IMG/VR virus record: IMGVR_UViG_3300045988_183505
Coordinates: 1-64,000 of that record
Length of the DNA stretch: 64,000 nt
Reading direction: 5' to 3' (one strand)
Source of the DNA: a virus
Shown here: positions 39,041 through 55,441 of the stretch, one piece after another
Layout: every line of letters starts with the position of its first letter
Position numbering within the stretch: position 1 is the first letter of the stretch
Program-made: the position numbers and the translations under genes
Notes under the pieces: model-generated
The model's database searches: none
What the model was told of the DNA's origin: nothing
What the model saw: only the letters and a program-made list of their open reading frames with translations

Positions 39041-39055
39041 ATCCCATCTAAAACA
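39041..39055. repeat. direct repeat flanking the oriT-like hairpin (ATCCCATCTAAAACA)
   Basis: Matches 39125..39138 (ATCCATCTAAAACA) apart from one extra C. Confidence 0.55.
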
Positions 39056-39067
39056 GGTACTTGCGTT

Positions 39068-39097
39068 GGTATTGGTATAACAAGATATACCAATACC
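39068..39097 (-). other. candidate oriT: perfect 12-bp inverted repeat with a 6-nt loop (minus sense GGTATTGGTATA-TCTTGT-TATACCAATACC)
   Basis: Upstream of the MobV relaxase. The xxGTATA/TATACxx arms and the loop ..TTG/TTATAC mirror the pMV158 oriT as remembered (AAAGTATA-GTGTGT-TATACTTT, nick at GTGTG/TT). Confidence 0.6.
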
Positions 39098-39124
39098 TGC
39101 TTTTGCGATATGATTGCTAAAAAA

Positions 39125-39138
39125 ATCCATCTAAAACA
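39125..39138. repeat. direct repeat flanking the oriT-like hairpin, second copy
   Basis: See 39041..39055. Confidence 0.55.
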
Positions 39139-39200
39139 ATAAGGGACGAACAGCTATATGCCATTCGCCCCCACACTATCTATCTGGTTGTATATAATGC

Positions 39201-39491
39201 TTACTTATTTGCAAAGTTGTTTGCAACCGCTTCTTTGAAACACTTGCTCGGCTTGAACTTCGGAATCATCTTTTCTGGTACGTCCTTTGCTGTACCAGTA
39301 GCAAGATTATGCACTGTTCTTGCCTTCTGCTTGAACGGCTCAAATGTACCAAAACCGATAAACTGAATCCGTTCACCAGCTGCCACCGCATCAACGATAG
39401 CACTCAGAAAATCGTCAACGATTTCCATTGTCTGAACCTGCGTCAGACCGTTCTTCTTTGCGATTTCTTTTACGATATTCTTTTTGTTCAT
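39201..39491 (-). CDS. hup: HU/IHF-family DNA-binding protein
   Basis: MNKKNIVKEIAKKNGLTQVQ..FIGFGTFEPFKQKARTVHNLATG..IPKFKPSK is the canonical HU pattern. Confidence 0.9.
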   Translation of the reverse strand: MNKKNIVKEIAKKNGLTQVQTMEIVDDFLSAIVDAVAAGERIQFIGFGTFEPFKQKARTVHNLATGTAKDVPEKMIPKFKPSKCFKEAVANNFANK

Positions 39492-39565
39492 TGTGATTAA
39501 CTCCTTTGTGAAAAAATGATTTTTATAATAGCCGCCGGTGCATCAGCGGCAATTATTACTGCAAA

Positions 39566-41041
39566 TTATTTTTGTATCAGAACAACATACTTTCTTTGCC
39601 CTTCCGATTCCTTGTCAGCATAATCTATTTGCCAGTCGTTACTCAAAAGGTAATCAATTGTAACTGCACTTTTCTGATTCAGAATGATTGCATCAAATTG
39701 AAACGTGTCCATAAATTTCTCTATGTCACCCTGCTTGTTGAAGGACGCATCACGAAAACAATTTGCTCCAGACAATGTTTCTTCATCAAAAAAATCTGCT
39801 CTTGCATCAACAAAATCCGGTAAACCATTATAGATAAGATATGCTCCCAAGTCATAATCATTATACGCTCTCTGAAAATTTTTTTCTTTCAGGTACTCTA
39901 TCAGTCCAGTAGAAACTTCTTCATATTTACAAGATTGGTATTCCCTTATTGTTTCAGCAAACAGGAGACAAGAGCAGCAACCACAAACTATCATCACAAG
40001 TGCATTTTTAGAAAACATTTTGCACTTTACAAATAGCGTGCTATCCATTGTCTTGATAACTTCAAGCAGCATTGGAATCATTGCAATTTCCATATACATA
40101 TACATACGAATATGGATTCCAGTCATGCCAAGCATCATTACGATTGGAAATATTTTTTTGAGTGAAATATTCTTTTTCTGTAGGACAAAAAATATGAAAA
40201 ACAGAATAAGACAAATCACAATTGGATAAAAAAGAAAAGTTGCTTTGTACCATTCATGTACACCATCTTTTGTATAAGAAACATTGTGAAACAAAGCATA
40301 TCCATACAGTTTAATGCCATATGGATTTATCATTCCAATCAAAATACTGACAACCAATGCGATGAAATCTGTTCTTGCGTTTTCCTTACTCTGTCTATGA
40401 AAAAGATTGCCTACTTGAAAATCCGGAATCAGATTCATAACAGCAAATACAGCTAAAATTGCAAAGTAAAAAAGCATACTTGAACCATGCAGATTTGCCC
40501 ATAGCAATGATATGATTCCCAGTACAAAAATCTTTTTCTTTGATGGCTTATCCTGTTGCAGGCAGTAATATGCCAGTGCAAAAAGCATACAGTCAAAAAC
40601 TCTTGTTCTTGCCAGATAGCAGCTGTCCACAACTATCCATATCACTACGCAATGTGCAAGCAATTTTGAAAAAGCATTTCCGTTCCAGTTTTTCAAAAAT
40701 GTAAACCGAAACACTAATGCACATATTGTTGATGTGGCAAATACAAAAGCAATTACTGCATTCATTATCGGCTGAAATAGAACAGAGAATCCGTAAGCAA
40801 TCACTGTTCCAAGCCATGAGTGCTGTATTTCTGAACCGCCACGTTCCTGTGCAATCCACGAGTAAGCATCTACGCCGTGAAAGTTTGGTTTTCCATTCAC
40901 GATAGCTTTTCCCAACACACAATACCAGTTGAAATCTCCATCATGCGATTCCATTAAACAAATCGCACAGAACACAGTGACCAATCCTGTAATCAATGAA
41001 AATAAAATTATATCTACGATTTCTTTTTCTCTGCTTTTCAT
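39566..41041 (-). CDS. polytopic membrane protein, GT-C glycosyltransferase-like (weak) with a C-terminal soluble domain
   Basis: Its ATG overlaps the topoisomerase stop (ATGA). More than ten hydrophobic segments. The early loop DGDFNWY and LWANLHGS are reminiscent of GT-C enzymes. Confidence 0.5.
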   Translation of the reverse strand: MKSREKEIVDIILFSLITGLVTVFCAICLMESHDGDFNWYCVLGKAIVNGKPNFHGVDAYSWIAQERGGSEIQHSWLGTVIAYGFSVLFQPIMNAVIAFVFATSTICALVFRFTFLKNWNGNAFSKLLAHCVVIWIVVDSCYLARTRVFDCMLFALAYYCLQQDKPSKKKIFVLGIISLLWANLHGSSMLFYFAILAVFAVMNLIPDFQVGNLFHRQSKENARTDFIALVVSILIGMINPYGIKLYGYALFHNVSYTKDGVHEWYKATFLFYPIVICLILFFIFFVLQKKNISLKKIFPIVMMLGMTGIHIRMYMYMEIAMIPMLLEVIKTMDSTLFVKCKMFSKNALVMIVCGCCSCLLFAETIREYQSCKYEEVSTGLIEYLKEKNFQRAYNDYDLGAYLIYNGLPDFVDARADFFDEETLSGANCFRDASFNKQGDIEKFMDTFQFDAIILNQKSAVTIDYLLSNDWQIDYADKESEGQRKYVVLIQK

Positions 41042-43236
41042 TTCTTCCCCCAGCCTGTTTTTTTCTTTCCCCAGCCGGAAGAAGATGATGTGCTTTTCTT
41101 TGCACCCCATGAAGATTGTTTTGGTTCAGCTTTCTTTGAACCGTTTCCTTTTGGCTTTGAATCCACAAATTCAAATCTGGTTTTATGATTGCTCTTATCC
41201 AAAACCAATTTCGCCTTAAATGATTTTCCAGCTTGGGACTTAAATGTATATGCCTTTGTTTTTCCCTTTGCAATCAAATCTTCAAGGTCGCTTTCTTTCA
41301 TCTTATGACCGCAAATTTCCAACCCGAAAGAGAACTTACAAGTACAATACCAACCGTATCGTCCATACTTCAATGCCGAACCACAACAAGGACAGATGTG
41401 TTCTTTTCCACTACCTTTATTGTTGAAGTTCTCTAAATGCTCATGGTTCTCTGAAAGAATTTTCCTCGTAGTGTCTGCAACATAAGTTTCTACTTCTTTC
41501 AGATAATTTTCTTTGTCCAACGCTCTGGTTGCAATCGCATTTAAGCTTGATTCCATCTCCGCAGTTTTCAGTGGCGAAATCAACTGCTCGTCATACTTTT
41601 CTACAATCGGAATGACTTTTTTCCCAAACTCAGTCGGAGCAATTTTCTGTTTTGCATCTACTGTGATGAACTCCTTTTCTTTGAGCTTTTCAATAATAGA
41701 TGCTCTTGTCGCAGAAGTTCCAATGCCGCAAGTCTTAATCTGTTCTCGCAGTTCTTCATCATCAATCAACCGTCCTGCTTTTTCCATTGCAAGAATCAGA
41801 GAACCGGTCGTGTAAGCAACAGGCGGTTTGGTCTCCATGTTATAAACACAGAAAGCATCAACTGATACGGTTTCACCTTTTCTCGGAACAGGCTTATCCG
41901 CAATATCATCACCTTCTGTATTTTCCTTGAATCCGGTCTGCTTGATAATTCGATAACTTTCAAAAAATCTTTCTTTGTTCTGGTGAATGTACACGATAGA
42001 AACTGCATCGTAAATGAACGGCGGTTTCATTGTGTTCTGGAATCTTTTCAGAATAACACTGTATACCTTCGCTTCCAGACCGGATAAGTTGTTAGGGTTG
42101 CCTTGTAATGTTGGAATAATTGCGTAGTGGTCGGTAACTTTACTATCATCGACATATCTATCCGGAATCTGGTAGCCTTTCTTTCTCAAATCTTCTGCAA
42201 CTGCACTTGAAAGAAAACGGCAATCAGTTCTTGGGTATGTAGTGTATTTTGCCTCATAGAGTGACTGTGCAATCGAAAGCGTGTTTGCCGGAGAAATCTT
42301 AAATGCTTTGGAACAATACGCCTGTAAATCTGCCAAATTGAACAGATAGGGAGCATACTCTGTTTTGGTTGTTACCTTAACATTATCTACCGTCAGCACT
42401 CTGCTCTGATTGCATTCTTCAACAAGTTCCTTTGCCTGCTTTTCTTGCAAAAAGCCATTTTCATTATACAGGTCATCACTTTCGTAAAACCGGCTTTCTT
42501 TCACCGCTTTCCATGATGCGAACTTGTCTGCCTTAACTCCATAATAATATGTTTTCGTAAATTCATCAATGTCTTTTTGCCGGTTTACAATCATCGCCAG
42601 CGTTGGTGTCATCACACGTCCGCAATTCATCAATTTTCCGGAAGTCAATGTGAATCCTTCTGTAAAATTCATGCCAATCAGCCAGTCTGAAATTGCTCTT
42701 GCATAGCCGCTGTCAATCATCGGCTGATACTCTGCATAAGGCTTTGCATCACGAATGCCGTTCAGAATAGATTCTTCTGTATAGCTGTCAATCCACACAA
42801 CTCGTTCATCAATTTTAGGTGCTGCCTTGAATATCTGATTGCGGATAAGAGCCTGAATATAGATTCCTTCTCGTCCACTATCGCCTGCATAGTAAATTCG
42901 TTCCACATCTTTTCGTGTGTACAGTGACTTTACAATCTTGAACTGCTTATATGTAGACTTTTGAGGTTCATATTTGAACTGCTTTGGAATCATCGGCAAA
43001 TGCTCTTTACTCCATCTGCCGCCCCAGTCTGGGTTCTGCACTTCCGGAGAGCTAATTGCAATCAAATGTCCAACCGCCCATGTGATAATCACATCTTTCT
43101 TCAAAACAGGGCTATATCCTTCCACATAACCATCGGTTTTTTCAGAGGGCTTTACCCCCAGCACCTTTTTGTACTCCTGTGCCACTAACGGTTTCTCTGT
43201 AATGATAATCGTACTCAAACCTGTTCTCCTTCCCAA
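41038..43236 (-). CDS. topB: DNA topoisomerase III (type IA)
   Basis: TOPRIM IIITEKP..DSGREG. Active-site block KYTTYPRTDCRFLS. Zn ribbon CPCCGSALKYGRYGWYCTC. Basic tail with three W-G-x-K-K repeats. Confidence 0.9.
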   Translation of the reverse strand: MGRRTGLSTIIITEKPLVAQEYKKVLGVKPSEKTDGYVEGYSPVLKKDVIITWAVGHLIAISSPEVQNPDWGGRWSKEHLPMIPKQFKYEPQKSTYKQFKIVKSLYTRKDVERIYYAGDSGREGIYIQALIRNQIFKAAPKIDERVVWIDSYTEESILNGIRDAKPYAEYQPMIDSGYARAISDWLIGMNFTEGFTLTSGKLMNCGRVMTPTLAMIVNRQKDIDEFTKTYYYGVKADKFASWKAVKESRFYESDDLYNENGFLQEKQAKELVEECNQSRVLTVDNVKVTTKTEYAPYLFNLADLQAYCSKAFKISPANTLSIAQSLYEAKYTTYPRTDCRFLSSAVAEDLRKKGYQIPDRYVDDSKVTDHYAIIPTLQGNPNNLSGLEAKVYSVILKRFQNTMKPPFIYDAVSIVYIHQNKERFFESYRIIKQTGFKENTEGDDIADKPVPRKGETVSVDAFCVYNMETKPPVAYTTGSLILAMEKAGRLIDDEELREQIKTCGIGTSATRASIIEKLKEKEFITVDAKQKIAPTEFGKKVIPIVEKYDEQLISPLKTAEMESSLNAIATRALDKENYLKEVETYVADTTRKILSENHEHLENFNNKGSGKEHICPCCGSALKYGRYGWYCTCKFSFGLEICGHKMKESDLEDLIAKGKTKAYTFKSQAGKSFKAKLVLDKSNHKTRFEFVDSKPKGNGSKKAEPKQSSWGAKKSTSSSSGWGKKKTGWGKK

Positions 43237-43499
43237 GCATTATTTAACTTTTGTAAGAATGCAATAAAATATTGCAGACTTTCTTTCCTGCAAAATCGCA
43301 TTTCAATATATTCTCCAGAGAGCAATGCCAACGGAACATCTTCTGTTCCTGCTTCGATTACTCCGTCCGGATTTTCCATTTCGCATATCCTGATAATTCG
43401 TGTTTTACTGTCTTTTTCCTGATAACCAACTAAGCACTTGTTAGGAAGTGTATCAGACCCAAATACCACCATTGGTGTTCTCTTATTCCGTCCAGCCAT
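43215..43499 (-). CDS. hypothetical protein
   Basis: ORF 43215..43691 trimmed to the ATG at 43499 after GAGGA. Overlaps its neighbours by a few nt. Confidence 0.45.
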   Translation of the reverse strand: MAGRNKRTPMVVFGSDTLPNKCLVGYQEKDSKTRIIRICEMENPDGVIEAGTEDVPLALLSGEYIEMRFCRKESLQYFIAFLQKLNNAWEGEQV

Positions 43500-43836
43500 T
43501 TTCATCGTCCTCATATTCGTCATCAAAATCAGCGAACTCCGCTTCAACACTTTCCAGATATTCTTCATACTGCTGTTTCCGCAAAGCATTTTCTTCTTTT
43601 TTCTGTCGATATGATTTCTTTCCAGTAAACACTCTCTTTTCTGGAATGCCAAGCTCCTTTCTTCGTTCTTCTGCCTGTTCGTCCTGTACAATATGCTTAT
43701 TTGTTAGGTAAATCTGCCATGCAAGCAACAAGGCAAATATTATTGTCACAAGAAACATAGACTTGATATTGACGAACGTAAGAAGTATCACAAGTCCATA
43801 CAGAAGGCACGTTTTTACATCTTTCTTAAATCTCAT
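43483..43836 (-). CDS. membrane protein (two TM helices) with an acidic tail
   Basis: TM segments CLLYGLVILLTFV and MFLVTIIFALLLAWQIYL. Confidence 0.5.
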   Translation of the reverse strand: MRFKKDVKTCLLYGLVILLTFVNIKSMFLVTIIFALLLAWQIYLTNKHIVQDEQAEERRKELGIPEKRVFTGKKSYRQKKEENALRKQQYEEYLESVEAEFADFDDEYEDDENGWTE

Positions 43837-43848
43837 GAAATGCTCCTC

Positions 43849-44088
43849 TCAGATTATTTCTTCAAAGTCGTCTAAACTTCCGACAATGGATTCAATTTCC
43901 GACTGTGGCTGTGGATTCTGCATTCCAACAGATACACCTTTTCGCTGATTATTCTTGAATTTCGACCATACACTATTCGGTACAGTCTGATTCACTTTTT
44001 CAGCCAGTTCCACCACTTCACGCTCCCTTGCAGTTGCATTTTCAATCGTGATAATCACTGCATCGTCTTTATACAGAATGTTCAGCAT
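43849..44088 (-). CDS. hypothetical small protein
   Basis: 79-aa ORF, tightly spaced. Confidence 0.45.
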   Translation of the reverse strand: MLNILYKDDAVIITIENATAREREVVELAEKVNQTVPNSVWSKFKNNQRKGVSVGMQNPQPQSEIESIVGSLDDFEEII

Positions 44089-44090
44089 AA

Positions 44091-44369
44091 TCAGTCCTCA
44101 CTTTCATTTAAGGATTTCAGCAATACTTTCATCTCCAGATATGACACTATCTTTTTTAAGGCATTCAGCCGAATCGGGTGTCCTACACGATAAAACAGCT
44201 TATCCACCACATTTCTCGTCATACCTGTTTCCCTTGCCAGCTTCCGCTTAGAAACACCTTTCGCTTCCATCGCTTCTGCTATTTGCTGAACGCTTTCTTC
44301 GGGCAGATATACCATGATGCCTTCTTCCCTCACCGCATACAGCAATCTTTGCATTCTTGGTCTTGCCAT
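44091..44369 (-). CDS. helix-turn-helix (XRE-like) regulator
   Basis: VSKRKLARETGMTRNVVDKL is an HTH pattern. Alternative start at 44315. Confidence 0.5.
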   Translation of the reverse strand: MARPRMQRLLYAVREEGIMVYLPEESVQQIAEAMEAKGVSKRKLARETGMTRNVVDKLFYRVGHPIRLNALKKIVSYLEMKVLLKSLNESED

Positions 44370-44425
44370 TCGTATTTTTCTCCTTTCCTCTGCTTATCCG
44401 CAGATTTATTACAGTTTATTTTGAC

Positions 44426-44965
44426 TTAATCGCCTGCCTCTGCATTCTGGTAAAAAGTATTCAGCTTATCCTGTTCCGATTCACAAAGCAGTACCTTGCT
44501 TTTGAACTCACAATAGCGAACATTTGAACCATAGCTTTTCCACACAATTTCCGGATTCAAAATATATACATTTGCACTTCCGGATTTCATGATATACAGT
44601 ATCTTTTCTTCTCGCAGCACTCTGACTGCTCTTGTAACGGAAGATTTTGAAACCTGAAAATATTCTGCCAAAAAAGTATAACTGCATACCAAACTATTCA
44701 GTCCGTCCATGCGGTCTGCGATAAACAGGTAAATCTGCATTGCCAGAGCATTCTTTTGCGTCAAAGCAATCAACTTATCTGTTCCATCAAGGTTCGTCTG
44801 TGCAAACCTCTCATAAGGGGAGTGCCGTTCTTTTCTGTGCAGCTTCTCCTGCATTTCAGTAATCTTCTGGAGTGCCTGCTCACGTTCTTCAAAGGTTACA
44901 TCATATTCTGCTGGATTATCTCCTACAGAAAAACTTCCCTTCGCTTCAAGTCCACTATTTTTCAA
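44426..44965 (-). CDS. repL: RepL-like winged-helix replication/maintenance protein
   Basis: TTG start 9 nt after AAAGGAG. NALAMQIYLFIADRMDGLNSLVCSYTFLAEYFQVSKSSVTRAVRVLREEKILYIMKSGSANVYILNPE resembles firmicute RepL. Confidence 0.55.
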   Translation of the reverse strand: MKNSGLEAKGSFSVGDNPAEYDVTFEEREQALQKITEMQEKLHRKERHSPYERFAQTNLDGTDKLIALTQKNALAMQIYLFIADRMDGLNSLVCSYTFLAEYFQVSKSSVTRAVRVLREEKILYIMKSGSANVYILNPEIVWKSYGSNVRYCEFKSKVLLCESEQDKLNTFYQNAEAGD

Positions 44966-44995
44966 GTGACACTGCTCCTTTCTGTATTCAACTCG

Positions 44996-45221
44996 TGACT
45001 ATCGCAATCGTCATTTCTGAATATGTCCTATTCAAATTTGACTATGCCGCAATCATCGTATGACTATATTATAGCACAATAACCCAAGGTGTTCAATCGT
45101 TGTCATGTATGAAAAATCGTTATTTTGTTTCACATTTTTTGTGTGGAACGTACATGGATTGTGGAAAACCTGTAACCGAGTAGTCACGCTGTGACTATAG
45201 CAGTAGTCACCACATGACTAT
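44996..45221. repeat. TGACTAT repeat cluster (5 direct copies plus 2 inverted TAGTCAC) around the repL promoter
   Basis: TGACTAT at 44996, 45039, 45061, 45192 and 45215. TAGTCAC at 45181 and 45204, forming TAGTCAC-gct-GTGACTA. Confidence 0.6.
45068..45096 (-). promoter_or_regulatory. promoter of the repL-like gene (TTGAAC-17 nt-TATAAT, TGc extended -10)
   Basis: Minus strand reads TTGAACaccttgggttattgtgcTATAAT. Confidence 0.7.
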
Positions 45222-45387
45222 TCCCCGACTCATAAAAAAACGTGAATCTGACGCATTTTCGGGACTTAATGTCTGTGAAGGGGTATTTGTCTCTCTTTAT
45301 ATCTTATTACGCCATCAAGCAGCTGAATGGTGTTCGCCTTTGAGCCGTTGCTCGCTTCCTAACGTATTTCCCATTTGCTCACAACGG

Positions 45388-45432
45388 GGACTGCTAGTTT
45401 GCAAGTTGCTATTTCTATCAGCAGTCCTTTTG
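45388..45432 (+). terminator. plus-strand intrinsic terminator (possible 3' end of a small RNA)
   Basis: GGACTGCT-24 nt-AGCAGTCC followed by TTTTGAG. There is no T-tract in the minus orientation. Confidence 0.5.
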
Positions 45433-45741
45433 AGGGACAGAAAAGTGAGAACACCGTGAAGTGAAATAAACTAACGTAAACTGTACAACAAACAGGATTG
45501 CCTCTCCCTATTAGAGTGAAAAAAGCTAATTCTTTTTTCCAGAAATGGGGCTTTATGCAATTTACCCAACTCATCAGCCAACGGCTTTCTCATGCTTTTT
45601 ACTAAATCCATAAGCCGTTGAGACGTTCTGCCGTTCCAATTCCATTCCTGTTTCCAAGTAAGGCAGCTATGCAGTGCCTGTAATTCATCAGACCGTTCCT
45701 GCAATTCAATCAACAATTCTGTATTGCTATGTATTTTATTT

Positions 45742-45790
45742 GCACCAGTTTTTAACTGGTGCATTGCCATAAAGCTTTGCTTTATGGCAA
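45742..45790. other. two adjacent perfect hairpins next to the iterons
   Basis: GCACCAGTT-TTT-AACTGGTGC (45742..45762) and TTGCCATAAAGC-TTT-GCTTTATGGCAA (45764..45790). Confidence 0.6.
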
Positions 45791-45822
45791 ATAAGAGTAA
45801 TACTATAAGCACACTGTATTGA

Positions 45823-45951
45823 ATGGGAATACAGTATTAGCTAATACCATATGGGTAATTCTGTATTAGCTAATAGATTGCTAACTGTACATGGGTAATA
45901 CTATAAGCTAATACTATAAGCATACTGTATATGGGTAATAGATAACTAATA
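45823..45951 (+). repeat. iteron array, four units ATGGG(T)AAT..(C/G)TAATA (candidate oriV)
   Basis: Units start at 45823, 45851, 45891 and 45931 (spacing 28, 40 and 40 bp), for example ATGGGTAATTCTGTATTAGCTAATA. Confidence 0.65.
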
Positions 45952-46203
45952 CTACATAGGTTAAGTATTATAATGGCATTTTTGCCCCAAAGTTTCTTTG
46001 CAAAGTCTGCTATAATTGCAAATCAGTTCTAAGCTATCTACAAGCCGTTTTGAGAGCTTTTTGCTTTTGCCAGCAAGTTTTCTTGCAAGCGTTGTTAGAA
46101 CGCCGCAGAACGAATCCTAATACACTTTCCGCTGGGTTTCCAGCTTAATTCTTCTCACATTCCACTTTCTTCCCGATATGCCTCTTTGCTTTCTAGGCAC
46201 GCT

Positions 46204-46223
46204 TTCTTTTTTGGCGTTACATA
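46204..46223 (+). promoter_or_regulatory. conserved 20-nt leader motif, copy 4 (plus orientation)
   Basis: TTCTTTTTTGGCGTTACATA. The orientation flips together with the direction of transcription. Confidence 0.6.
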
Positions 46224-46383
46224 ACGCAAGTGAAAGGTGATGACAGATTCAGACATTACAGTTTTTGTGATACGGAATACCGACACGAAAGCTTTTCTTC
46301 ACCCAAATGTGAGGTGCAATGTTTGAACAACGCTCCGCAGGCATGAACTGTGCCGGTAAGGAGCAAGACAAGAGAAAGCAGGT

Positions 46384-46716
46384 ATGTGTATGGACTATTT
46401 TGCTCCCGAAATTTACGACAAGAAATTTTTGAAACCGGAAGACCAGAATGTTCTGGAAAAAATGCAGGACATGAGAGACCGTGTTCTGAATGATGATGTA
46501 CTGGAAGATTATCTTTCTGAAACTGTTGATAGTGATATGCCGGTGATGTGCAGTCTTGTCCGTGAGACGTTGAGCAAATTCATCGAATATCTGGTACTGC
46601 AATCAGAATACCGCTTTTGCGATTTCATCATCAGCTGCATCGAAGATTATCCGGAAGCGATGTATCAGGAACTCGTTACTAAGGCAAAAGAAAAGGAAAA
46701 AAGCAATGTACAGTGA
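46384..46716 (+). CDS. hypothetical acidic protein
   Basis: 110-aa ORF and the first gene of the plus arm. Weak RBS. Confidence 0.45.
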   Translation: MCMDYFAPEIYDKKFLKPEDQNVLEKMQDMRDRVLNDDVLEDYLSETVDSDMPVMCSLVRETLSKFIEYLVLQSEYRFCDFIISCIEDYPEAMYQELVTKAKEKEKSNVQ

Positions 46717-46924
46717 CACTCTCCTGATAGTGAGATGGACAAATTTGCACAACGGAGACAGCGGATATGTCAAATCTTTGCACCGCCAAGAGCGATATTT
46801 TGAAAGCACACACGTTGTAGAAGAAGCCAAAGTTTTCAGTGCAAGAGGAATTAAGCAGATGCTTTATCTGCTCCGCTCTTACAATCCAGAAAACGCCTAT
46901 TCTACTGAACCTCTCGGTTATTGA
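46706..46924 (+). CDS. hypothetical small protein
   Basis: 72-aa ORF with AAGGAAAA upstream. Overlaps the previous gene by 11 nt. Confidence 0.4.
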   Translation: MYSDTLLIVRWTNLHNGDSGYVKSLHRQERYFESTHVVEEAKVFSARGIKQMLYLLRSYNPENAYSTEPLGY

Positions 46925-46957
46925 AAAATCATACCGATACAACCAAAAGGAAATTAT

Positions 46958-47416: not shown

Positions 47417-47422
47417 TACGCT

Positions 47423-49768: not shown

Positions 49769-49793
49769 ATCAAATACAGAAAGGATAATCAAC

Positions 49794-50114
49794 ATGAGAA
49801 AAAAAGATGCAGTTGCAGAAAAGACGCTGGCGAAAATTCGCAAAGAAGAAGATAAACTGGCTGGTCTTGAACTGAAAAAAGAAGAACTGGAAAATCAAAT
49901 CAAGGAATGCAAGGCTGGTATTGCAGAACTGCGAAAGCAGGAAAAGCGTGAGAAGCTGGAAGCTATCGCTGAACTGAATGATAAAGCTGGCATTTCTTTG
50001 GACGACCTTCTGAAAGCTGCTCAGTCTGGAGACTTTTTCTCTTTGCAGGAAAAGCTGGAGCAGGCAAGCGAACCACACGACACTTCTGTTTCTGCTGACA
50101 CAGATGCAGAATAG
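49794..50114 (+). CDS. coiled-coil small protein (DUF4315-like)
   Basis: The ATG at 49794 follows AAAGGA. Heptad-rich segment KIRKEEDKLAGLELKKEELENQIKECKAGIAELRKQEKREKLEAI. Confidence 0.5.
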   Translation: MRKKDAVAEKTLAKIRKEEDKLAGLELKKEELENQIKECKAGIAELRKQEKREKLEAIAELNDKAGISLDDLLKAAQSGDFFSLQEKLEQASEPHDTSVSADTDAE

Positions 50115-50196
50115 TGGTTATACATAAAACCTTCCTTCTTAGGGCTGTTTGTCTGCGGATAAGCAGCCTTTTTTCAAAACAGAAAGAGGTGATACT

Positions 50197-50733
50197 TTGA
50201 ACGGCAATTGCCACTTTATCTTTGGTGCAAGTGTTGGTGCATCTCTGGCAATGAATATTGATAAGTTGGATTTCTTCTTTCCCCGAATTATGGACACACC
50301 GGAAATGGCAGTCTTGTTTGTTATGGGTGGTCTTCTCGGCGGTATCTTTCCGGATATTGATAACCCTACTAGCTATGTTGGAAAGCTGACAGCACCAGTA
50401 AGCCGATGGCTCGGCAAGGTTTCAGCTACAATGGGGAAGGAAGGCTGGAATCACAGAGGTATTCTTCATGACCCGATTGTCTATTTGATAGGACTGTTTT
50501 TATGCACTTATCAATTTCCACCGCTGATAGGATTCTTTGTCGGCTGTCTCTCTCACTTGTTTTTAGATATGTTCAATCCAGTAGGCATACCATTTCTTTT
50601 TGGCGTAAAACATCTTCGGCTTGCAAAAGTCCCTAGCAGCAGTAAGCAAGCAATCACTTTGACGTGGATTGCTACTGGAGCAGTATTCTTTGCAGGACTG
50701 GCAGGGTGCTTCTATCCTGCTCTTCTATCTTAA
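50197..50733 (+). CDS. YdjM-family membrane-bound metal-dependent hydrolase
   Basis: TTG start after AGAGGTG. H..FG..., GGIFPDIDNPTS, NHRGILHD and LSHLFLDMFN match YdjM/DUF457 motifs. Confidence 0.65.
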   Translation: MNGNCHFIFGASVGASLAMNIDKLDFFFPRIMDTPEMAVLFVMGGLLGGIFPDIDNPTSYVGKLTAPVSRWLGKVSATMGKEGWNHRGILHDPIVYLIGLFLCTYQFPPLIGFFVGCLSHLFLDMFNPVGIPFLFGVKHLRLAKVPSSSKQAITLTWIATGAVFFAGLAGCFYPALLS

Positions 50734-50776
50734 ATCATACGCAAATAAACCCGCATAAACTGAAAGGAAACATAAA

Positions 50777-51757
50777 ATGAAAGCTTCGTTATTTTTGCTG
50801 ATTATCTTCGTCCTTGTTGTTCTTGCTTCAAGGGTTCGTGTTGTGCCACAGGCATACATTGTAGTTGTGGAACGACTGGGAACATTCTATAAGCAGTGGG
50901 GAGCTGGTGTCCATTTTTTGATGCCGGTACTGGATAAGCAGGCAAGAAAAATCTCTATCAAGGAGCAGGTGGTAGACTTTAAGCCACAGGCGGTTATCAC
51001 AAAGGATAATGTTACCATGCAGATTGATACTGTTATCTTCTATCAGGTCATGGACGCTGTAAAGTATGTGTACGGCGTAGAAAAGCCAATGCAAGCGATT
51101 GAGAATCTGACTGCGACAACTCTCCGTAACATCATCGGCGATATGGAACTGGACGCAACGCTGACTTCTCGTGATGTTATCAATACTCGTATCACCGATA
51201 TTCTTGACCACGCAACCGACCGCTGGGGAATCAAAGTTCTGCGAGTAGAATTGAAAAACATTCTGCCGCCAGCAGAGATTCGTGATGCTATGGAAAAACA
51301 GATGAAGGCAGAGCGTGAAAAGCGTGAGAAAATTTTGAAGGCACAGGGCGAACGTGAATATCAGGTCACTGTTGCACAGGGCGAAAAGGAAGCCAAAATT
51401 CTTCGGGCAGAGGCTGATAAGCAAACCGCAATCTTAAAAGCAGAGGCAGACAAGGAAGCTGTGATTCTTCGTGGTGAAGCAATCAAGGAGCAGAAAATGC
51501 GTATCGCTGTTGGTGAAGCTCAGGCTATTCGTGAAGTACAGGCTGCAACTGCGGAAAGCTTGGTGAAGCTGAATAATGCAAATCCGAATCAAGCTGTCCT
51601 GACATTAAAATCGCTGGAAGCCTTTGAAAAGGCTGCGGACGGCAAAGCAACTAAGATTATTATTCCCAGCGAGATTCAGGGCGTGGCTGGTCTTGCTGCC
51701 GGATTGAAAGGCGTACTGGAGCAAAATAGTGCCGAAAGCAATACAGAAGATAAATAA
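50777..51757 (+). CDS. SPFH/band-7 (stomatin/prohibitin-like) membrane protein
   Basis: N-terminal TM segment, then VVERLGTFYKQWGAGVHFLMP..VITKDNVTMQIDTVIFYQV..TLRNIIGDMELDATLTSRD..WGIKVLRVELKNI. Confidence 0.9.
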   Translation: MKASLFLLIIFVLVVLASRVRVVPQAYIVVVERLGTFYKQWGAGVHFLMPVLDKQARKISIKEQVVDFKPQAVITKDNVTMQIDTVIFYQVMDAVKYVYGVEKPMQAIENLTATTLRNIIGDMELDATLTSRDVINTRITDILDHATDRWGIKVLRVELKNILPPAEIRDAMEKQMKAEREKREKILKAQGEREYQVTVAQGEKEAKILRAEADKQTAILKAEADKEAVILRGEAIKEQKMRIAVGEAQAIREVQAATAESLVKLNNANPNQAVLTLKSLEAFEKAADGKATKIIIPSEIQGVAGLAAGLKGVLEQNSAESNTEDK

Positions 51758-51811
51758 TCGTAAGTATATAAGTACAGCAGCTATACAAAACAACAAAATA
51801 ACGATATTGTA

Positions 51812-51840
51812 TTGACAGTGCAGTTTTTTCGTATTATAAT
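51812..51840 (+). promoter_or_regulatory. perfect consensus promoter TTGACA-17 nt-TATAAT
   Basis: TTGACAgtgcagttttttcgtatTATAAT. Confidence 0.8.
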
Positions 51841-51846
51841 AGTAGT

Positions 51847-52097
51847 TGTGGGAAACCACTAAGCTGGTTGCTCTTTTTCCTACGCTCCGGAAACTTTTTC
51901 ACTCATGTTACGTTTCCAGAGCTAGGCTTGAACGCACCGCCGGAAGGTGCTTAATGATAAAAACGGTGTAATCCGATGGACAGTCCGTTATACGTTTGAA
52001 AGTATCCGTTGTCGGGCTGACAATAGGTACACCGAAGTAGCAGGCATTGTCAATATCGGCAGTGCCTGTTTTCTTTTACCTTGAAAGGAAGATTACA
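51847..52097 (+). promoter_or_regulatory. about 250-nt structured 5' leader (candidate riboswitch, attenuator or small RNA) of unknown class
   Basis: GTGG-GAAA-CCAC (51848..51859). Long hairpin 51879..51894 with 51912..51926. GCACC-N7-GGTGC (51934..51950). The terminator comes last. Confidence 0.55.
52039..52077 (+). terminator. intrinsic terminator inside the leader, just before the RBS of the 52098 gene
   Basis: CAGGCA-16 nt-TGCCTG followed by TTTTCTTTT. Confidence 0.6.
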
Positions 52098-53309
52098 ATG
52101 GAAAATTTACAGCAAAGCACCTATGAAAATGCTGGTCGCTTGATGAATCTTTATGATTACATGGCTGCTATCGGTGATGACAACTATGAAAATCTGTACG
52201 ATGATATTACCCAAGATGTCGATGTGAGATACAGAAGTGATGACAGTGATTATCAGGAATGGGTTGACCAGCTGGCAAAAGAGCATGATTTGTTCTCGAA
52301 AGAAAGCATGGAGAAAATCAATGCTCGATTTGAACCTCAGATTTTTGTAGCAGACGATTCTGCCAAAATCGCTCCTGTTGTATATGATAACCAATACGAC
52401 ACCTATCTGACGTTGGACAAATTTGCAGATGAACTTGAAAGCTATGCAGATATGGACATTGAAGGGGAGAATGAGGTTTATCAAGAAGGTTACTTTTCTC
52501 CTTATTACATGGACGAACCGCCAACAAAAAAAGTTTCCTTTTCCGGCACTTTGGAAACAAGTATGCGTGAACTGGTTCAGGACTTTTATCAGTGGCTGGG
52601 TGAAATTGACGATGAAATCGCACAGCATCTGGAGCAGGTGAGTGAAGATAAGAATATCCCAGCAAGTGAGGTTGCTGTCCTTGCAATCAGCCAGTCTGAC
52701 CGATTGATGACAGCAAACGACTATCTCGTTGCATCGTCTCCAGATATTTATTCCATGTATGAAGATATTGCTGATTACGGATTCAATTACGATGTGAATT
52801 TAGATAACAGCCTGCTCCAGAGCAAGATGCCAGAAATCGAAAAAATTATTCAGGAACATGGTGGCGTTTCCAATCGTACACAGGACGAACTGGAAGACCG
52901 CTTTGAACCACAGGTGCTTGTACGAGACGGCGGCGAAGCAATTGTTACTCCGCTGGTGTACGACAATCAGGAAAATAAGTATATTACAGTCAGCAGTGTG
53001 GCTGATACGTTGAAGGAGATGCTGATTCCTGATGTTCATGGTGAAATCACTGCTGAAAATGGTGAATCTATTCCGTTCAATGCACACATGGACGTAGAAA
53101 GCGAATCTAAACGTATCCTTGCAGACAGCTACAAGCAAAATGCAACATACTTGAAGGAGGCACTTGTCGAAGTAAGAGAGGCATACAAAGATGATATGCC
53201 GAAGCTGAAAGCTACTGTTGACCATTTCAAAGAAAAAATGTCCATTCTGTATGATAAGCGGCAATCAGAAGTGCAGCCCAAAAAAGATTCACAGAACATA
53301 GAGCGATAA
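52098..53309 (+). CDS. highly acidic protein with an internal tandem duplication, ends KKDSQNIER
   Basis: The ATG at 52098 follows GAAAGGAAG. Repeats are ARFEPQIFVADDSAKIAPVVYDNQYDTYLT and DRFEPQVLVRDGGEAIVTPLVYDNQENKYIT. Confidence 0.6.
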   Translation: MENLQQSTYENAGRLMNLYDYMAAIGDDNYENLYDDITQDVDVRYRSDDSDYQEWVDQLAKEHDLFSKESMEKINARFEPQIFVADDSAKIAPVVYDNQYDTYLTLDKFADELESYADMDIEGENEVYQEGYFSPYYMDEPPTKKVSFSGTLETSMRELVQDFYQWLGEIDDEIAQHLEQVSEDKNIPASEVAVLAISQSDRLMTANDYLVASSPDIYSMYEDIADYGFNYDVNLDNSLLQSKMPEIEKIIQEHGGVSNRTQDELEDRFEPQVLVRDGGEAIVTPLVYDNQENKYITVSSVADTLKEMLIPDVHGEITAENGESIPFNAHMDVESESKRILADSYKQNATYLKEALVEVREAYKDDMPKLKATVDHFKEKMSILYDKRQSEVQPKKDSQNIER

Positions 53310-53372
53310 TTGTGATAACGGTTACGATGTGATAAAATTAAACAAATACACATTAGAAAGTTGGGATAAATT

Positions 53373-54239
53373 ATGGGTTTTGCATCAAAAGAACAAGTTG
53401 ACACAATTTCAGCACTAACTTCGCAGCTATATCGCTACTACTCTACCGCCTATTATGAAGGAGTGTACAGCGGCAAATTAGATAAAGCCATTGAACACGA
53501 CTTGATTCCATGGCTTTTGGAATTGAAAAAAGAAGTGGAAGCAGAAGGTTGCCACTTAGATTCGATGGGGGTTTATTTCAGAAATGACAGACCTGTCTTA
53601 CAGTATGGCAGAACTGTCGTATGCAGTTATGACGCTATGGACAATGCCACTATGCGAAAGCTAAAGCTTCCGCTTACCGATGTTAAATTGGTTCGGAAAG
53701 AAGTAGAGGCTGACCTTTATCAGATGATAATGGACTTAAAATCTGGTATGACTGTGGAACAGTTTGCAGAGAAGTATCGTGGAAATGATATATACCACGG
53801 CGTTCCAGAACTGGAGCAGCACATACTGGAGCAGATAAGTTCCGGCAACAGTGATGACGTAACACTTAATGCTATAATCGCCAATGGAAAATCAGTTTCT
53901 GTTATTAGAGCAAATCTTCAATCAGACCTTGCCGTAGCAAAATTTCTATCTCAAAACTACCTTGTTCGTGTGGGATATAACGATGGTAAGATTGTTCTGG
54001 GAGATTCTGTTATAGACCGTTATGCCATTCGGGTTCGCTGTATAAAAAGTGACGCAAATGCAAGTTTCAAAAAAGACCCACTCAAAATCAAATGTTTTGA
54101 GGTGGATTTGAAATTTGCAAATGGGAACAGAAGTTTACTGACATTTAGACCGAGTGATAGCCCTTTTTATGTTCCGCAAATAGAAAAGGTTTTAACTGAA
54201 AATGCAATTGGAGAGGAGAAGAAACAACGTGGACGGTAA
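53373..54239 (+). CDS. hypothetical protein, ends EEKKQRGR
   Basis: 288-aa ORF. Confidence 0.55.
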   Translation: MGFASKEQVDTISALTSQLYRYYSTAYYEGVYSGKLDKAIEHDLIPWLLELKKEVEAEGCHLDSMGVYFRNDRPVLQYGRTVVCSYDAMDNATMRKLKLPLTDVKLVRKEVEADLYQMIMDLKSGMTVEQFAEKYRGNDIYHGVPELEQHILEQISSGNSDDVTLNAIIANGKSVSVIRANLQSDLAVAKFLSQNYLVRVGYNDGKIVLGDSVIDRYAIRVRCIKSDANASFKKDPLKIKCFEVDLKFANGNRSLLTFRPSDSPFYVPQIEKVLTENAIGEEKKQRGR

Positions 54240-55317
54240 TCAATCTATCAATCAGATGTTAGCAATCCACAAGGAGCAGGAACTGGAAATTCAGAACATG
54301 GATTTTCAGAACCTGTCCGACCATGACAAACAAGTTCTTGCTGAATATGCAGAAACCAAAGTGTTGCTGCATAATACAGCAAATGTAATTCAATTTGTCC
54401 AAAACTCTGCACAGGTTATTACAGACGAAAATGGACAAAAGCAGGCAGTAGGTATGCTGGATAAGGAATCTTATGCGGAGCTTTCTGTATTTGCTACCAT
54501 GAATCAAAATCCGGAACTTCTGGAAATGGCGAAGCAAAGTCAGATAACCGAACTGCCGCTTTCTGAAAAAGCTGCCCTCTGGGAAAAAGGGGAGAACACG
54601 CAGCAAGAAATTTTGCTTCACACGCCAGCTACTGTTGATAATTTTGTAGAAGCTGGATACGACAGTTTCTATGTTGGAGATGGCACTGTTGAAGTGCTGG
54701 ACGCAACACTTGCAGATGCGATGGAGCTGATGAAAGATTATGGTATTGACCAATCTGATGTGTATAACAGTACACGGGAACAATTCCGACTGATGCAGGA
54801 ACAGCAGTCACTTGTGAACTATGAATACACCGAAAAAGAGCAGGAACTTTCTGAGGAAAATGAATATTTACAGCGGCAGATGGAATTACAGGAAATTGCA
54901 AAACAAGCCGTTGAAGAAAACTACTCCAAAGATGATAAAGACGGTTTGCAGGAACGGTTCTCTCTCACTACAGAAGAAGTTGCTGCCGTTGCTGTTGCAA
55001 TGCAGACTTACGAATGGATAAAGCTTGCAGAAGCATGGGAACAGGAGAACCTTGCCGAGAAAACAAAAGAACAAGAGCCTGCTGAAATCGTAGAAAGCTC
55101 TGATGGGTATGTCATGGCAATGAGCAAAATGACACCGCAGAATGAGAAACAGCTGCAATCCAGAATTGAGAACGGCAATGAGGTAATTCATCATGAAACA
55201 GCAAGGGAAACAACAACAGACCCTGCACAGGTGAAACCGAATGTAAAGCTGGAAACAGCTCAAAACAAAGGCACACAAGAAAAGAAAGCAAGACAGGTAG
55301 ATTATGACAGGGATTAA
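54202..55317 (+). CDS. acidic hypothetical protein, ends KKARQVDYDRD (start uncertain)
   Basis: 371-aa ORF. Alternative starts are a GTG at 54229 after GGAGAGGAG and an ATG at 54256. Confidence 0.55.
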   Translation: MQLERRRNNVDGNQSINQMLAIHKEQELEIQNMDFQNLSDHDKQVLAEYAETKVLLHNTANVIQFVQNSAQVITDENGQKQAVGMLDKESYAELSVFATMNQNPELLEMAKQSQITELPLSEKAALWEKGENTQQEILLHTPATVDNFVEAGYDSFYVGDGTVEVLDATLADAMELMKDYGIDQSDVYNSTREQFRLMQEQQSLVNYEYTEKEQELSEENEYLQRQMELQEIAKQAVEENYSKDDKDGLQERFSLTTEEVAAVAVAMQTYEWIKLAEAWEQENLAEKTKEQEPAEIVESSDGYVMAMSKMTPQNEKQLQSRIENGNEVIHHETARETTTDPAQVKPNVKLETAQNKGTQEKKARQVDYDRD

Positions 55318-55330
55318 AAGAAAGTAGCCT

Positions 55331-55352
55331 TTGGTATATCTTGTTATACCAA
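55331..55352 (+). other. second copy of the oriT-like hairpin, inverted relative to copy 1 (TTGGTATA-TCTTGT-TATACCAA)
   Basis: The 25-nt stretch 55331..55355 is the exact reverse complement of 39069..39093. Confidence 0.6.
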
Positions 55353-55441
55353 TACTACTATTATTTGCCCTATTTATTTTTATCAAAAAATAACGAAAAA
55401 CCACCTGTACAACAACTCATAAGCAAGACGAAAGGATTCAT

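Follow-up and report, generated by a model that had tools for sequence, protein, structure and literature searches.

In pMV158, the prototype of MOBV1, the origin of transfer (oriT) contains three overlapping inverted repeats. The hairpin bound by the relaxase MobM is IR1/IR3, whose end lies 8 nt 5' of the nick, with IR1+8 as the minimal site; IR2 is not bound as single-stranded DNA by the N-terminal domain. In pBMB0228 of B. thuringiensis, which has two relaxases (Mob02281 and Mob02282) and two origins (oriT1 and oriT2), the relaxase needs no more than a 24-bp core hairpin as its substrate. Two working oriTs per element are documented in this plasmid, in R6K/IncX and in ICEclc; in the last of these, relaxase and oriT additionally drive the replication of the element after excision. 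The Pre proteins of pT181, pE194 and pUB110 act on a short site (RSA) upstream of their own gene; RSA recombination forms cointegrates and resolves them between direct sites.

The window analyzed here (the whole stretch of 64,000 nucleotides) contains, from a gut or rumen Firmicute, an integrated element of ~53 kb whose tyrosine integrase adjoins ftsH-hpt-tilS. The idea of a free plasmid was therefore rejected, as the element sits in a chromosome. It is best described as a putative integrative conjugative element that combines a RepL replicon with a MobV relaxase (HUH, histidine-nucleophile) and a Firmicute-type type IV secretion system (T4SS). The gene context given by the sequence-only reading (MobV, HU, TopB, RepL, the iterons and the polyvalent proteins) was verified (Table 1), the polyvalent proteins being LPD1/LPD11. 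The relaxase matches the MobM structure 4LVI (E=1.7e-12) and shares with MobM the catalytic His and the HxDE..PHxH motif (H18/R21 and H117-D119-E120...H124xH126 conserved). The order TopB-HU-mob is conserved in L035, L040, L043 and L046, and HU is a candidate relaxosome accessory factor.

Table 1. Features around the two hairpin copies (positions in the window).
Feature	Position	Strand	Details
Type IV coupling protein (VirD4/TraG type)	22966..24837	-	Pfam T4SS-DNA_transf, 165 bits; TraG-D_C
VirB4-like conjugation ATPase (CD1110 family), directly downstream of mob	34977..37535	-	NCBIfam NF045971, 652.9 bits
MobV (Mob_Pre) relaxase, 451 aa	37553..38908	-	Pfam PF01076, 73.6 bits; NCBIfam MobV
Conserved promoter/leader block upstream of mob	38931..38998	-	TTGACAAAATAATCTGAAAG...TTTTTTGGCGTTACATAACGAATATAGGAACAC; phylogenetic footprint vs L035
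Direct repeat, left copy	39041..39055	.	not conserved
Copy 1, nick hairpin, predicted oriT core	39068..39097	-	GGTATTGGTATA-TCTTGT-TATACCAATACC
Direct repeat, right copy	39125..39138	.	not conserved
Terminator-like hairpin of HU gene	39142..39172	-	13 pairs, 7 G-C, then TATTGTTTTA
HU-type DNA-binding protein	39201..39491	-	Pfam Bac_DNA_binding, 95 bits
RepL-like replication protein, between the two copies	44426..44965	-	
Iteron-like 22-nt repeats	45798..45930	.	at gene-orientation and GC-skew switch
371-aa ORF, ends just before copy 2	54202..55317	+	
Copy 2, exact 25-nt copy of hairpin core	55331..55355	+	TTGGTATATCTTGTTATACCAATAC
Promoter/leader-like module	55377..55424	+	TTTTTATCAAAAAATAACGAAAAACC...; 25 nt downstream of copy 2
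Polyvalent protein, 1547 aa (LPD1)	56123..60766	+	

The hairpin described upstream of the relaxase gene (copy 1) was confirmed as perfect, with 12-bp arms and a 6-nt loop; it spans the stretch 160-189 nt upstream of the relaxase. A hairpin with the same 16-nt core (GTATA-YCTTGN-TATAC) was found in mob sense, 130-250 nt upstream of mob, in nine lineages (L035, L040, L043, L044, L045, L046, L047, L023 and L029) with relaxase identities of 27-88%. Across the family hairpins the inner TATA/TATA and C.TTG are invariant, and compensatory changes occur at 8 of the 12 stem pairs, the outer stem of copy 1 being among the covarying parts; 82% of the cells are paired, compared with 67% in shuffles (level reached by 0/500). 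The direct repeats reported to flank the hairpin (ATCCCATCTAAAACA and ATCCATCTAAAACA, 1-nt indel apart) are present, but they are not conserved: near-identical strains differ in one of them, and the 88% relative has neither. Part of the mob promoter/leader block recurs three times, at 21972, at 26488 and in inverted form at 46200.

The likeness to pMV158 includes the relaxase fold and catalytic motifs, the site upstream of mob on the coding (transferred) strand, and the nick-region core GTATA-xxxTG/T-TATAC, identical to copy 1 at 13/16 positions, with a hairpin (IR2) that spans the nick. The locus had been called pMV158-like, which holds for this nick-region/IR2 part only: a single hairpin is present here, and no IR1/IR3-like one was found. 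The pMV158 sequence had been given correctly, but the stretch is IR2, whereas MobM binds IR1/IR3. pMV158 also differs in being a small, mobilisable plasmid of the rolling-circle type with a single oriT, which overlaps the mob promoters; here, the conserved promoter block is found about 60-130 nt further downstream. In pBMB0228, as here, a MobV relaxase (34.7% identical over the N-terminal domain) is encoded next to a RepL gene, and the replicon has the site in two copies; its core oriT is one imperfect hairpin holding the nick, with arms (TTTGGTATA/TAGACCAAA) close to those found here (TTTGGTATA/TATACCAA). Unlike here, its oriTs are direct repeats, each accompanied by a mob gene of its own, that originated through cointegration and that the relaxase resolves; our element has one relaxase and inverted copies, and the loop is TCTTGT instead of ACGTGC. 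The conserved position, the covarying stem, the invariant core and the resemblance to the nick region of pMV158 and the core oriT of pBMB0228 together make it very probable that copy 1 is a MOBV-type oriT.

The second copy, on the opposite strand, was confirmed as identical to copy 1 over 25 nt, with similarity reaching 35 nt at 89%. Loop and 3' flank (AATAC) are unchanged, the perfect stem is only 8 bp long and is followed, past an internal loop, by an outer stem of 5 bp, and the copy starts 14 nt after the 371-aa ORF's stop codon. With respect to local transcription the two copies have the same orientation, since gene direction and GC skew both switch near 46 kb. Searching the window with the 22-mer (up to 3 mismatches) gave 2 matches, against 0 in 100 shuffles, and a covariance model of 19 hairpins from the family found just these two sites (47.9 and 41.8 bits; next distinct site, 16.9). 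Conservation of copy 2 in relatives, assessed in one moderately diverged (88%) relative, was found at the equivalent position (L036, 11103-11126) with 1 change in 22 nt, while the spacer around it has visibly changed more, through many substitutions and indels. At the base 3' of the stem, both window copies have T and both copies of this relative have C. In all sampled strains the core is invariant and the neighbouring bases vary. As judged by these comparisons, copy 2 is a genuine, maintained second copy and not a chance match. In L037 and L038, which have distant homologues of the 371-aa gene, the hairpin is absent 3' of the gene. The module downstream of copy 2 precedes the operon of the 127-aa, 96-aa and polyvalent proteins; it has inverted matches at 15437-15484, 11008-11057 and 8730-8759, and its core AAAAATAACG is retained in L036 and L038.

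Extra hairpin copies were also identified at other loci in four other lineages, each with that lineage's own variant (TCTTGA in L040 and in L045, CCTTGC in the L047/L054 lineage); the fourth lineage is the P0061 group. The locus differs in each lineage; five are inverted and one, in L079, is a direct repeat adjoining an integrase, an excess that is not significant (binomial p about 0.11). Pairs are divergent in the window, in L040 and in the P0061 group, and convergent in L045. The claim that the copies bracket the replication region holds for the window and L040 and is no general rule, the L045 pair bracketing mob and virB4. All extra copies are intergenic and upstream of operons, near FtsH-like (L040), T4SS (L045) or traX operon (L100, L067) genes. 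L043, L044 and L046 showed a single copy within +-10 kb, and L017 and L022, two unrelated contigs, share the 25-29-mer with the window.

We favour, with a probability of roughly one half, the joint reading that copy 1 is the oriT and copy 2 a second relaxase target, an auxiliary oriT on the opposite strand. The relaxase would read the inner arms GTATA/TATAC and the loop YCTTGN sequence-specifically and, by analogy with pMV158 (GTATAGTGTG/TTATAC), is predicted to nick the mob-sense strand where the loop meets the 3' arm, between G and T (CTTG/TTATAC). Copy 2 would be a minimal second recognition and nick unit, retained by selection, most likely bound and nicked by the same relaxase, so that the other strand exits in the opposite direction. 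Assuming the nick polarity of pMV158, nicking at copy 1 would bring mob, virB4 and the T4SS genes first into the recipient, and nicking at copy 2 the 127-aa/96-aa/polyvalent-protein operon, the replication segment between the sites entering last from either. Since related elements repeatedly have two opposite-facing copies, both DNA strands may be usable for transfer. Of the options raised earlier for the pair, a second or bidirectional transfer origin fits a copy 2 that is genuine and maintained, whereas we infer its cutting and its support of transfer. Some observations sit less well with a second oriT: the equivalent pMV158 hairpin, IR2, is the one left unbound by the MobM domain; the extra copies have no fixed position or geometry, as by-products or hitch-hiking elements would also produce; the distant 371-aa homologues lack the hairpin; and just one copy was seen in the searched stretches of L043, L044 and L046.

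Alternatively, copy 2 could be a by-product that is tolerated and serves no purpose, namely a short duplicate of the oriT core left at an ectopic site by relaxase-mediated or recombination events or by a hitch-hiking element; we consider this possible but doubtful. An inverted copy, unlike a direct one, spares the intervening DNA from relaxase-mediated deletion and could therefore persist, and the resolution of direct oriT repeats by the pBMB0228 MobV would explain a bias towards inverted survivors. The differing loci and unconserved geometry of the extra copies, the one beside an integrase (resembling an oriT-bearing hitch-hiker) and the lack of the hairpin in distant relatives are all in line with this. 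However, 21/22 core positions are retained in the 88% relative within a more diverged spacer, the core is invariant among strains with variable neighbouring bases, the T-to-C flank change is common to both copies, and independent gain in at least four lineages suggests an advantage. It is unlikely that copy 2 is a regulatory operator, bound without productive nicking by the relaxase or an accessory protein such as HU, through which the adjacent 127-aa/polyvalent operon would be expressed according to the transfer state. MobM does repress its own gene via its oriT, and the conserved module downstream of copy 2 and the position of all extra copies upstream of operons fit; yet copy 1 itself lies outside the conserved promoter block of mob, an operator would have no need of an unchanged loop and unchanged nick-site bases, and the genes adjoining the extra copies are unrelated across lineages.

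We give very little credence to the suggestion that the inverted sites are Pre-like recombination substrates, through which the relaxase inverts the 39-55 kb replication segment. MobV/Pre proteins recombine oriT/RSA sites, and the 24-bp core suffices in pBMB0228, but documented relaxase recombination involves direct repeats, and inversion would turn genes against the replication direction. Each junction was read in 24 contigs, which come from different samples. Of these, 21 are accounted for at copy 1 (10 places shown and 11 similar), all with HU-hairpin-MobV, and 11 at copy 2 (4 shown and 7 similar), all with p371-hairpin-p127; no inverted isomer was found among them, and OHBM01000312 and DRR198892_56744 carry both copies arranged as in the window. 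Equally improbable is a role in RNA or single-stranded DNA without the relaxase, as terminator, mRNA-stabilising 3' stem-loop or single-strand initiation signal. Both window copies are sense and intergenic, copy 2 just past a stop codon, but neither is followed by a sense-strand U/T tract, and a terminator scan listed copy 1 on the antisense strand only and copy 2 not at all. The HU gene has its own canonical terminator-like hairpin, also found in the 88% relative, so that copy 1 is unneeded as its terminator; in L045 and L100 the extra copy runs antisense to the local genes, and the invariant loop and inner arms point to a protein-recognised site.

Further known systems come close to our element in part. 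The plasmids with Pre/RSA share the Mob_Pre family with our element, although no recombination product was seen here in the contigs read at the junctions. ICEclc is, as proposed for our element, an integrative conjugative element with two transfer origins and one relaxase; unlike ours it is proteobacterial, with a different relaxase (TraI), and its oriTs differ in sequence context and are unequally used. In R6K/IncX, two inverted functional oriTs (oriT-alpha and oriT-beta) flank the replication region and are served by a single relaxase, TaxC. These plasmids are Gram-negative, and their oriTs lie within long inverted repeats with the alpha and beta replication origins, whereas here only 25-35 nt are duplicated, 16 kb apart, in an arrangement unfixed across the family. 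Dual inverted oriTs are already known from R6K/IncX; if copy 2 works, both strands of our element would be usable for transfer, something known from a few others.

The window held two copies of one hairpin: a perfect hairpin upstream of the MobV relaxase gene (copy 1) and, on the other strand, an exact 25-nt repeat of its core (copy 2). The likeness between them extends to 35 nt at 89% and then stops; copy 2 has a perfect 8-bp stem and, beyond an internal loop, a 5-bp outer stem. Searching the window for the 22-mer with up to 3 mismatches returned these two sites (0/100 in shuffles), which confirmed the inverted second copy noticed in the sequence-only reading. A covariance model of 19 family members also found only the two copies in the whole window (47.9 and 41.8 bits; next distinct site, 16.9 bits), and the ~53-kb element unit, searched as the window plus locus L184, contained exactly two. 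Two GTATA-N7-TATAC motifs considered as further oriT-type hairpins reached only 16.9 bits with the family model and were rejected. The direct repeats described as flanking copy 1 are present, 1-nt indel apart, but they are not conserved: one is polymorphic among near-identical strains and both are absent from the relative with 88% relaxase identity (all percentages given for relatives are relaxase identities), so they were given no weight. A megablast search of PLSDB with both hairpin regions gave no match. An 18-mer scan covered 596 Gb of genome and metagenome collections; since ~17 matches are expected there at random, most hits (Omnitrophota, Heimdallarchaeota and similar, within coding regions) were dismissed as chance, and matches were retained only if identity extended or a mob context was present.

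Features in the window and in loci of related or matching contigs (L-numbers)
Feature	Position	Strand or orientation	Sequence or context
Copy 1, perfect hairpin	39068-39097	-	GGTATTGGTATA-TCTTGT-TATACCAATACC; 160-189 nt upstream of the relaxase gene, downstream of HU
Copy 2, exact 25-nt repeat	55331-55355	+	TTGGTATATCTTGTTATACCAATAC
Mob_Pre/MobV relaxase	37553-38908		
VirB4-like ATPase, CD1110 family	34977-37535		gene after mob
Coupling protein (T4CP)	22966-24837		
RecD-like helicase	17558-19291		
HU	39201-39491		
HU terminator-like hairpin	39142-39172		HU's own
Block conserved with 88% relative	38931-38998		apart from copy 1
Iteron-like repeats	45798-45930		at strand switch
Two neighbouring perfect hairpins	45741-45790		10 bp and 12 bp, TTT loops; abutting iterons at strand switch
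Motif TATGTAACGCCAAAAAAGAAAACG	21972-21995, 26488-26511, 38948-38971; 46200-46226	last one inverted	gene sense CGTTTTCTTTTTTGGCGTTACATA
Second upstream module	8729-8772, 11014-11057, 15445-15488; 55377-55424	last one inverted	core AAAAATAACG(A/G)
78-nt repeat family	2503-2580, 6899-6976, 11097-11174		palindrome ATATCTACCGGTAGATAT
30-nt direct repeat	24-53, 15584-15613	direct	TTTTTGTGCAATGTATACAA(CA/TG)GCTATACA; contains GTATA-N7-TATAC hairpin
GTATA-N7-TATAC motifs	36-52, 15596-15612		
ParA; ParB	7938-8714; 7013-7912		left region
Dam-like/DUF4942 protein	8772-10571		left region
UvrD-like helicase-nuclease	4885-6858		left region
L035 mob-upstream hairpin			TTGGTATA...
L040 mob-upstream hairpin			AAGTATA-TCTTGA-TATACTT
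L043 mob-upstream hairpin			CTATGTATA...
L023 mob-upstream hairpin			TACATCTGGTATA...
L047 mob-upstream hairpin			AAGTATA-CCTTGC-TATACC
L046 (40%) mob-upstream hairpin, variant	L046 9722-9789 (with tandem repeats)		TTATAACTATA-GCAAGT-TATAGTTATAA
L040 (46%) extra copy	L040 2770-2816 (with duplicated arm)	inverted to mob-proximal copy	7 kb off, other arm, upstream of FtsH-like gene
L045 (44%) extra copy		inverted; antisense to local genes	4.3 kb off, between virB4 and T4SS genes
L047 and L054 contigs, extra copy		inverted; antisense to local genes	175 nt upstream of traX-like gene
L054 contig only, third copy	L079 6346-6361	direct	beside tyrosine integrase
P0061 group (42%), pair	L067 1173-1779; L097 715-1322	divergent, inverted	590 nt apart, ~55 kb from mob
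Hairpin clusters, rumen contigs	L014 2576-2680, L033 1670-1760, L031 11002-11070, L016 563-693, L021 346-1454		2-3 related hairpins each

We consider copy 1 to be the origin of transfer (oriT), with a probability of roughly 85%. A hairpin with the core GTATA-YCTTGN-TATAC was found 130-250 nt upstream of mob, in mob sense, in nine lineages ranging from 88% to 27% relaxase identity, with an outer stem that varies from lineage to lineage. In an ungapped alignment of 19 instances, 8/12 stem pairs had compensatory changes and the inner TATA/TATA and C.TTG columns were invariant; paired cells made up 82%, against 67% in shuffles (none of 500 as high) and 21-44% when partners were slid. A comparison of the HU-mob spacer with that of the 88% relative showed four blocks to have survived: the hairpin core, the promoter block, the HU terminator and a short GGGAATCCA block. 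The nick in copy 1 is predicted at CTTG/T. For this conjugative-element family, oriT prediction is now possible to the nucleotide. In L046, three 16-nt direct repeats (ACACTTATAACTATAG) stand in tandem, and the last of them forms the left arm of the variant hairpin; they resemble sites that an accessory protein would bind.

Small mobilisable plasmids are the setting in which MOBV relaxases are best known. The relaxase of the window matched PF01076 (Mob_Pre) with 73.6 bits (cutoff 25.5) and the NCBIfam MobV equivalog with 88.6 bits, under its cutoff of 100, and is thus a divergent member. In its alignment to MobM (4LVI, E=1.7e-12), FQHNNR falls on FKHNER and VVHKDEvTPHLHL on SVHLDEsTPHMHM, so that the catalytic His (HxxR motif, MobM His22) and the HxDE...PHxH metal-binding motif are both present; H18, R21, H117, D119, E120, H124 and H126 were unchanged in 16 homologues. 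At E<=1e-10 we identified 144 homologues, many on contigs of 50-260 kb or more, with the gene order RepL...TopB-HU-MobV-VirB4 conserved among them. In the present case a MOBV relaxase acts for large conjugative elements, a family widespread in gut and rumen Firmicutes. Among contigs classed as viral in IMG/VR, eight of 88-177 kb (L047-L054) have this MobV-VirB4 conjugation module; they look like conjugative elements or host chromosome, not phages.

Genes run on the minus strand up to ~45.8 kb and on the plus strand from ~46.2 kb, and the GC skew flips there too. Since this switch falls between the copies, they point in opposite directions along the DNA and yet share one orientation with respect to the transcription around them. 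The segment that separates them contains TopB, a RepL-like gene and the iterons. Copy 2 begins 14 nt past the stop codon of a 371-aa ORF with no function assigned; 25 nt after it lies a promoter- or leader-like module, present upstream of other operons as well, and downstream of this module come 127-aa and 96-aa ORFs and then a 1547-aa LPD1 polyvalent protein. The TATGTAACGCCAAAAAAGAAAACG motif, directly upstream of four operon starts (mob among them) and kept in the 88% relative, may be either a 5' leader common to these operons or a promoter recognised by a dedicated sigma factor. The second upstream module, the one that follows copy 2, was found in distant relatives too (L036, L037, L038). 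The loop-less palindrome of the 78-nt repeat family lies upstream of operons and looks like an operator; kin of this repeat occur in the metagenome contig L022 (6485-6561, 7710-7770), which also has the 29-nt hairpin. The paired TTT-loop hairpins probably belong to the RepL origin.

When the last ORF that is complete in the window was traced through public assemblies, a tyrosine integrase came to light past the window end (window-equivalent ~67.6-68.7 kb), followed by the chromosomal genes ftsH-hpt-tilS; integrase and genes lie ~4-7 kb beyond the end, and loci L184-L187 cover window-equivalent 64-72.7 kb. Four contigs part from one another at window-equivalent ~69.0 kb. Window-equivalent 15.55-68.97 kb is spanned by contigs of ~53.4 kb, obtained from five samples, and in the 88% relative by one of 52.6 kb. 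From these end points, shared by independent contigs, we infer that the unit is a ~53-kb integrative conjugative element (ICE) with a RepL replicon, which has a terminal integrase with chromosomal DNA beside it and carries VirB4, T4CP and MobV inside; the data suggest boundaries at 15.55 and 68.97 kb. One copy of the 30-nt direct repeat is at the inferred left end, and a related sequence, TTTTTGTGCAACATGTACAA, is in the chromosomal flank past the right end (L186, L187). The 30-nt repeats are probably att-type sites, and the same assignment is the likelier one for the GTATA-N7-TATAC motifs, because the repeat lies where independent contigs end. If they truly are att sites, window 1-15.5 kb would be a second element in tandem integration. 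This region (1-15500), which lies to the left of the ICE's inferred end, resembles a mobile element too and has promoter-like modules in common with the ICE.

Copy 2 has been maintained. The 88% relative (contig DRR198892_56744) has a hairpin in the same place as copy 2, after the orthologous ORF, reading TTGGTATA-CCTTGT-TATACCAA. Copy 2 differs between the two by 1 change in 22 nt, while the remaining spacer has many substitutions and indels and has visibly drifted further apart. Directly after the stem, both window copies have T and both copies of the relative have C. The copy-2 core was unchanged in all strains of the window lineage sampled; nearby bases vary. Distant homologues of the 371-aa ORF (L037, L038, L039) had no hairpin at the equivalent position. 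In more distant lineages we found extra copies at other loci, each bearing its own lineage's variant. After the second copy of L040, its right arm and flank are duplicated in tandem (ATATACCTGTG twice). The pair in L045 brackets mob-virB4, and that of the P0061 group surrounds an AT-rich non-coding stretch upstream of a Zn-ribbon/traX/HTH_17 operon; this group has no hairpin near mob. In L043, L044 and L046 a single copy was seen within +-10 kb. Extra copies were inverted in five cases and direct in one, which is not significant (p about 0.11). The third copy on the L054 contig (locus L079, contig IMGVR_UViG_3300029704_000248) lies 37 nt past the tyrosine integrase gene and ahead of a RusA gene, and may be an integrated hitch-hiker bearing the host element's oriT; that it follows a homologue of the 371-aa ORF was rejected, the preceding ORF being the integrase.

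The exact 25-29-mer was also found in two unrelated metagenome contigs, in L017 after an ORF with two HTH_17 domains and in L022, which shares the palindromic repeat family of window 1-15.5 kb; such a pattern suggests sharing or borrowing of oriT sequences among elements. Homologues of traX/HTH_17, the hairpin neighbours in L067 and L017, were not found in the window. Rumen contigs without detectable MobV have clusters of related hairpins beside AAA_25 or integrase genes, for example GTATA-ACTTGT-TATAC adjoining GGTATA-TCTTGT-TATACC.

In the mechanism that we consider most likely, MobV would bind and nick the mob-sense strand at copy 1 and, by pMV158 polarity, mob, virB4 and the T4SS genes would be first into the recipient. 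Copy 2 presents the same 25-nt unit on the opposite strand; if it were nicked, the polyvalent-protein operon would lead, and the 16-kb replication segment would enter last whichever copy is used. It is quite improbable, in our judgement, that paired opposite nick hairpins are a selected design of the family, going beyond a spare oriT. If the relaxase did nick both strands, the excised circle could be replicated or transferred by two outward strand-displacement forks, each copying the strand displaced by the other, so that synthesis of both strands would be continuous and need no lagging-strand priming. Such an arrangement would be the relaxase-driven equivalent of RSF1010's paired ssiA/ssiB sites, and the P0061 pair would be a compact form of the two-fork device.

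Copy 2 could instead be a neutral by-product, tolerated because it is inverted, which we regard as rather unlikely, or a regulatory operator, which is unlikely. An inversion switch is very improbable: relaxase-mediated inversion of the 39-55 kb segment had been proposed, but at the copy-1 junction, where 24 contigs were read, the 10 places listed and 11 similar ones were all HU-hairpin-MobV; at the copy-2 junction, also with 24 contigs read, the 4 listed and 7 similar ones all had the hairpin between the 371-aa and 127-aa ORFs; and both contigs holding the two copies matched the window arrangement. No inverted junction thus appeared among the contigs listed, which are assemblies, where rare isomers could escape. 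We give equally little credence to an RNA or single-stranded DNA signal. The shared terminator suggested before was discarded, as the hairpins do not combine a G+C-rich stem with a T tract, no T-run follows copy 2, and a terminator scan omitted copy 2 and listed copy 1 on the antisense strand only, with a weak tail; the extra copies in L045 and L100 are antisense to local genes.

The lineage-matched extra copies and the 25-mer on unrelated contigs amount to a natural experiment on the minimal unit recognised by a MobV relaxase, on whether both strands of one element can launch, and on how other elements borrow an oriT. Answers would improve oriT annotation in metagenomic mobile elements.

The oriT of pMV158 reads GCACACACTTTATGAATATAAAGTATAGTGTG/TTATACTTTA; it is the coding strand of mobM that is transferred. 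Its nick region (GTATAGTGTG/TTATAC) and that of the window (GTATATCTTGTTATAC, where the nick is only predicted) are identical at 13/16 positions, with matching strand and position. The matched part is IR2, to which the N-terminal domain of MobM fails to bind when it is single-stranded; at a minimum MobM needs IR1+8, where the IR1/IR3 hairpin stops 8 nt 5' of the nick. Neither the sequence nor the DNA fold of 39040-39140 contains an IR1/IR3-like second hairpin, only the IR2-like one. In pMV158 the oriT overlaps the mob promoters (autoregulation), whereas in the window the conserved block is separate from the hairpin. The likeness to pMV158 is confined to the nick-region sequence (IR2) and does not extend to the IR1/IR3 hairpin or the overlap with mob promoters. 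The closer structural match is pBMB0228 of B. thuringiensis, whose MobV is 34.7% identical to the window relaxase. There, one imperfect hairpin with the nick inside makes up the 24-bp core oriT (TTTGGTATA-ACGTGC-TAGACCAAA; window, TTGGTATA-TCTTGT-TATACCAA), found 58-60 nt upstream of each of two mobV genes, and this core by itself suffices for relaxase-mediated recombination. The hairpin upstream of mobV in the window, in mob sense, fits this single-hairpin type of MOBV core oriT, an imperfect inverted repeat of ~24 bp.

In R6K/IncX plasmids, oriT-alpha and oriT-beta lie within inverted repeats flanking the replication region and are served by one relaxase (PMC3332091). The window is similar in having inverted oriT-type copies, at 39.08 kb (-) and 55.34 kb (+), on either side of RepL and the iterons (44.4-45.9 kb); the bracketing of the replication region was also found in L040, but not in L045. 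The R6K/IncX oriTs lie in long inverted repeats carrying replication origins, unlike the window copies, whose similarity spans only 35 nt. Dual oriTs served by one relaxase have also been documented in ICEclc, pAD1 and pBMB0228. The MOBV oriT hairpin and dual oriTs are of known kinds; new are a MOBV relaxase combined with a large family of Firmicute conjugative elements, the fact that so small a unit (25-35 nt) is duplicated, and the recurrence of extra copies matched to their own lineage.
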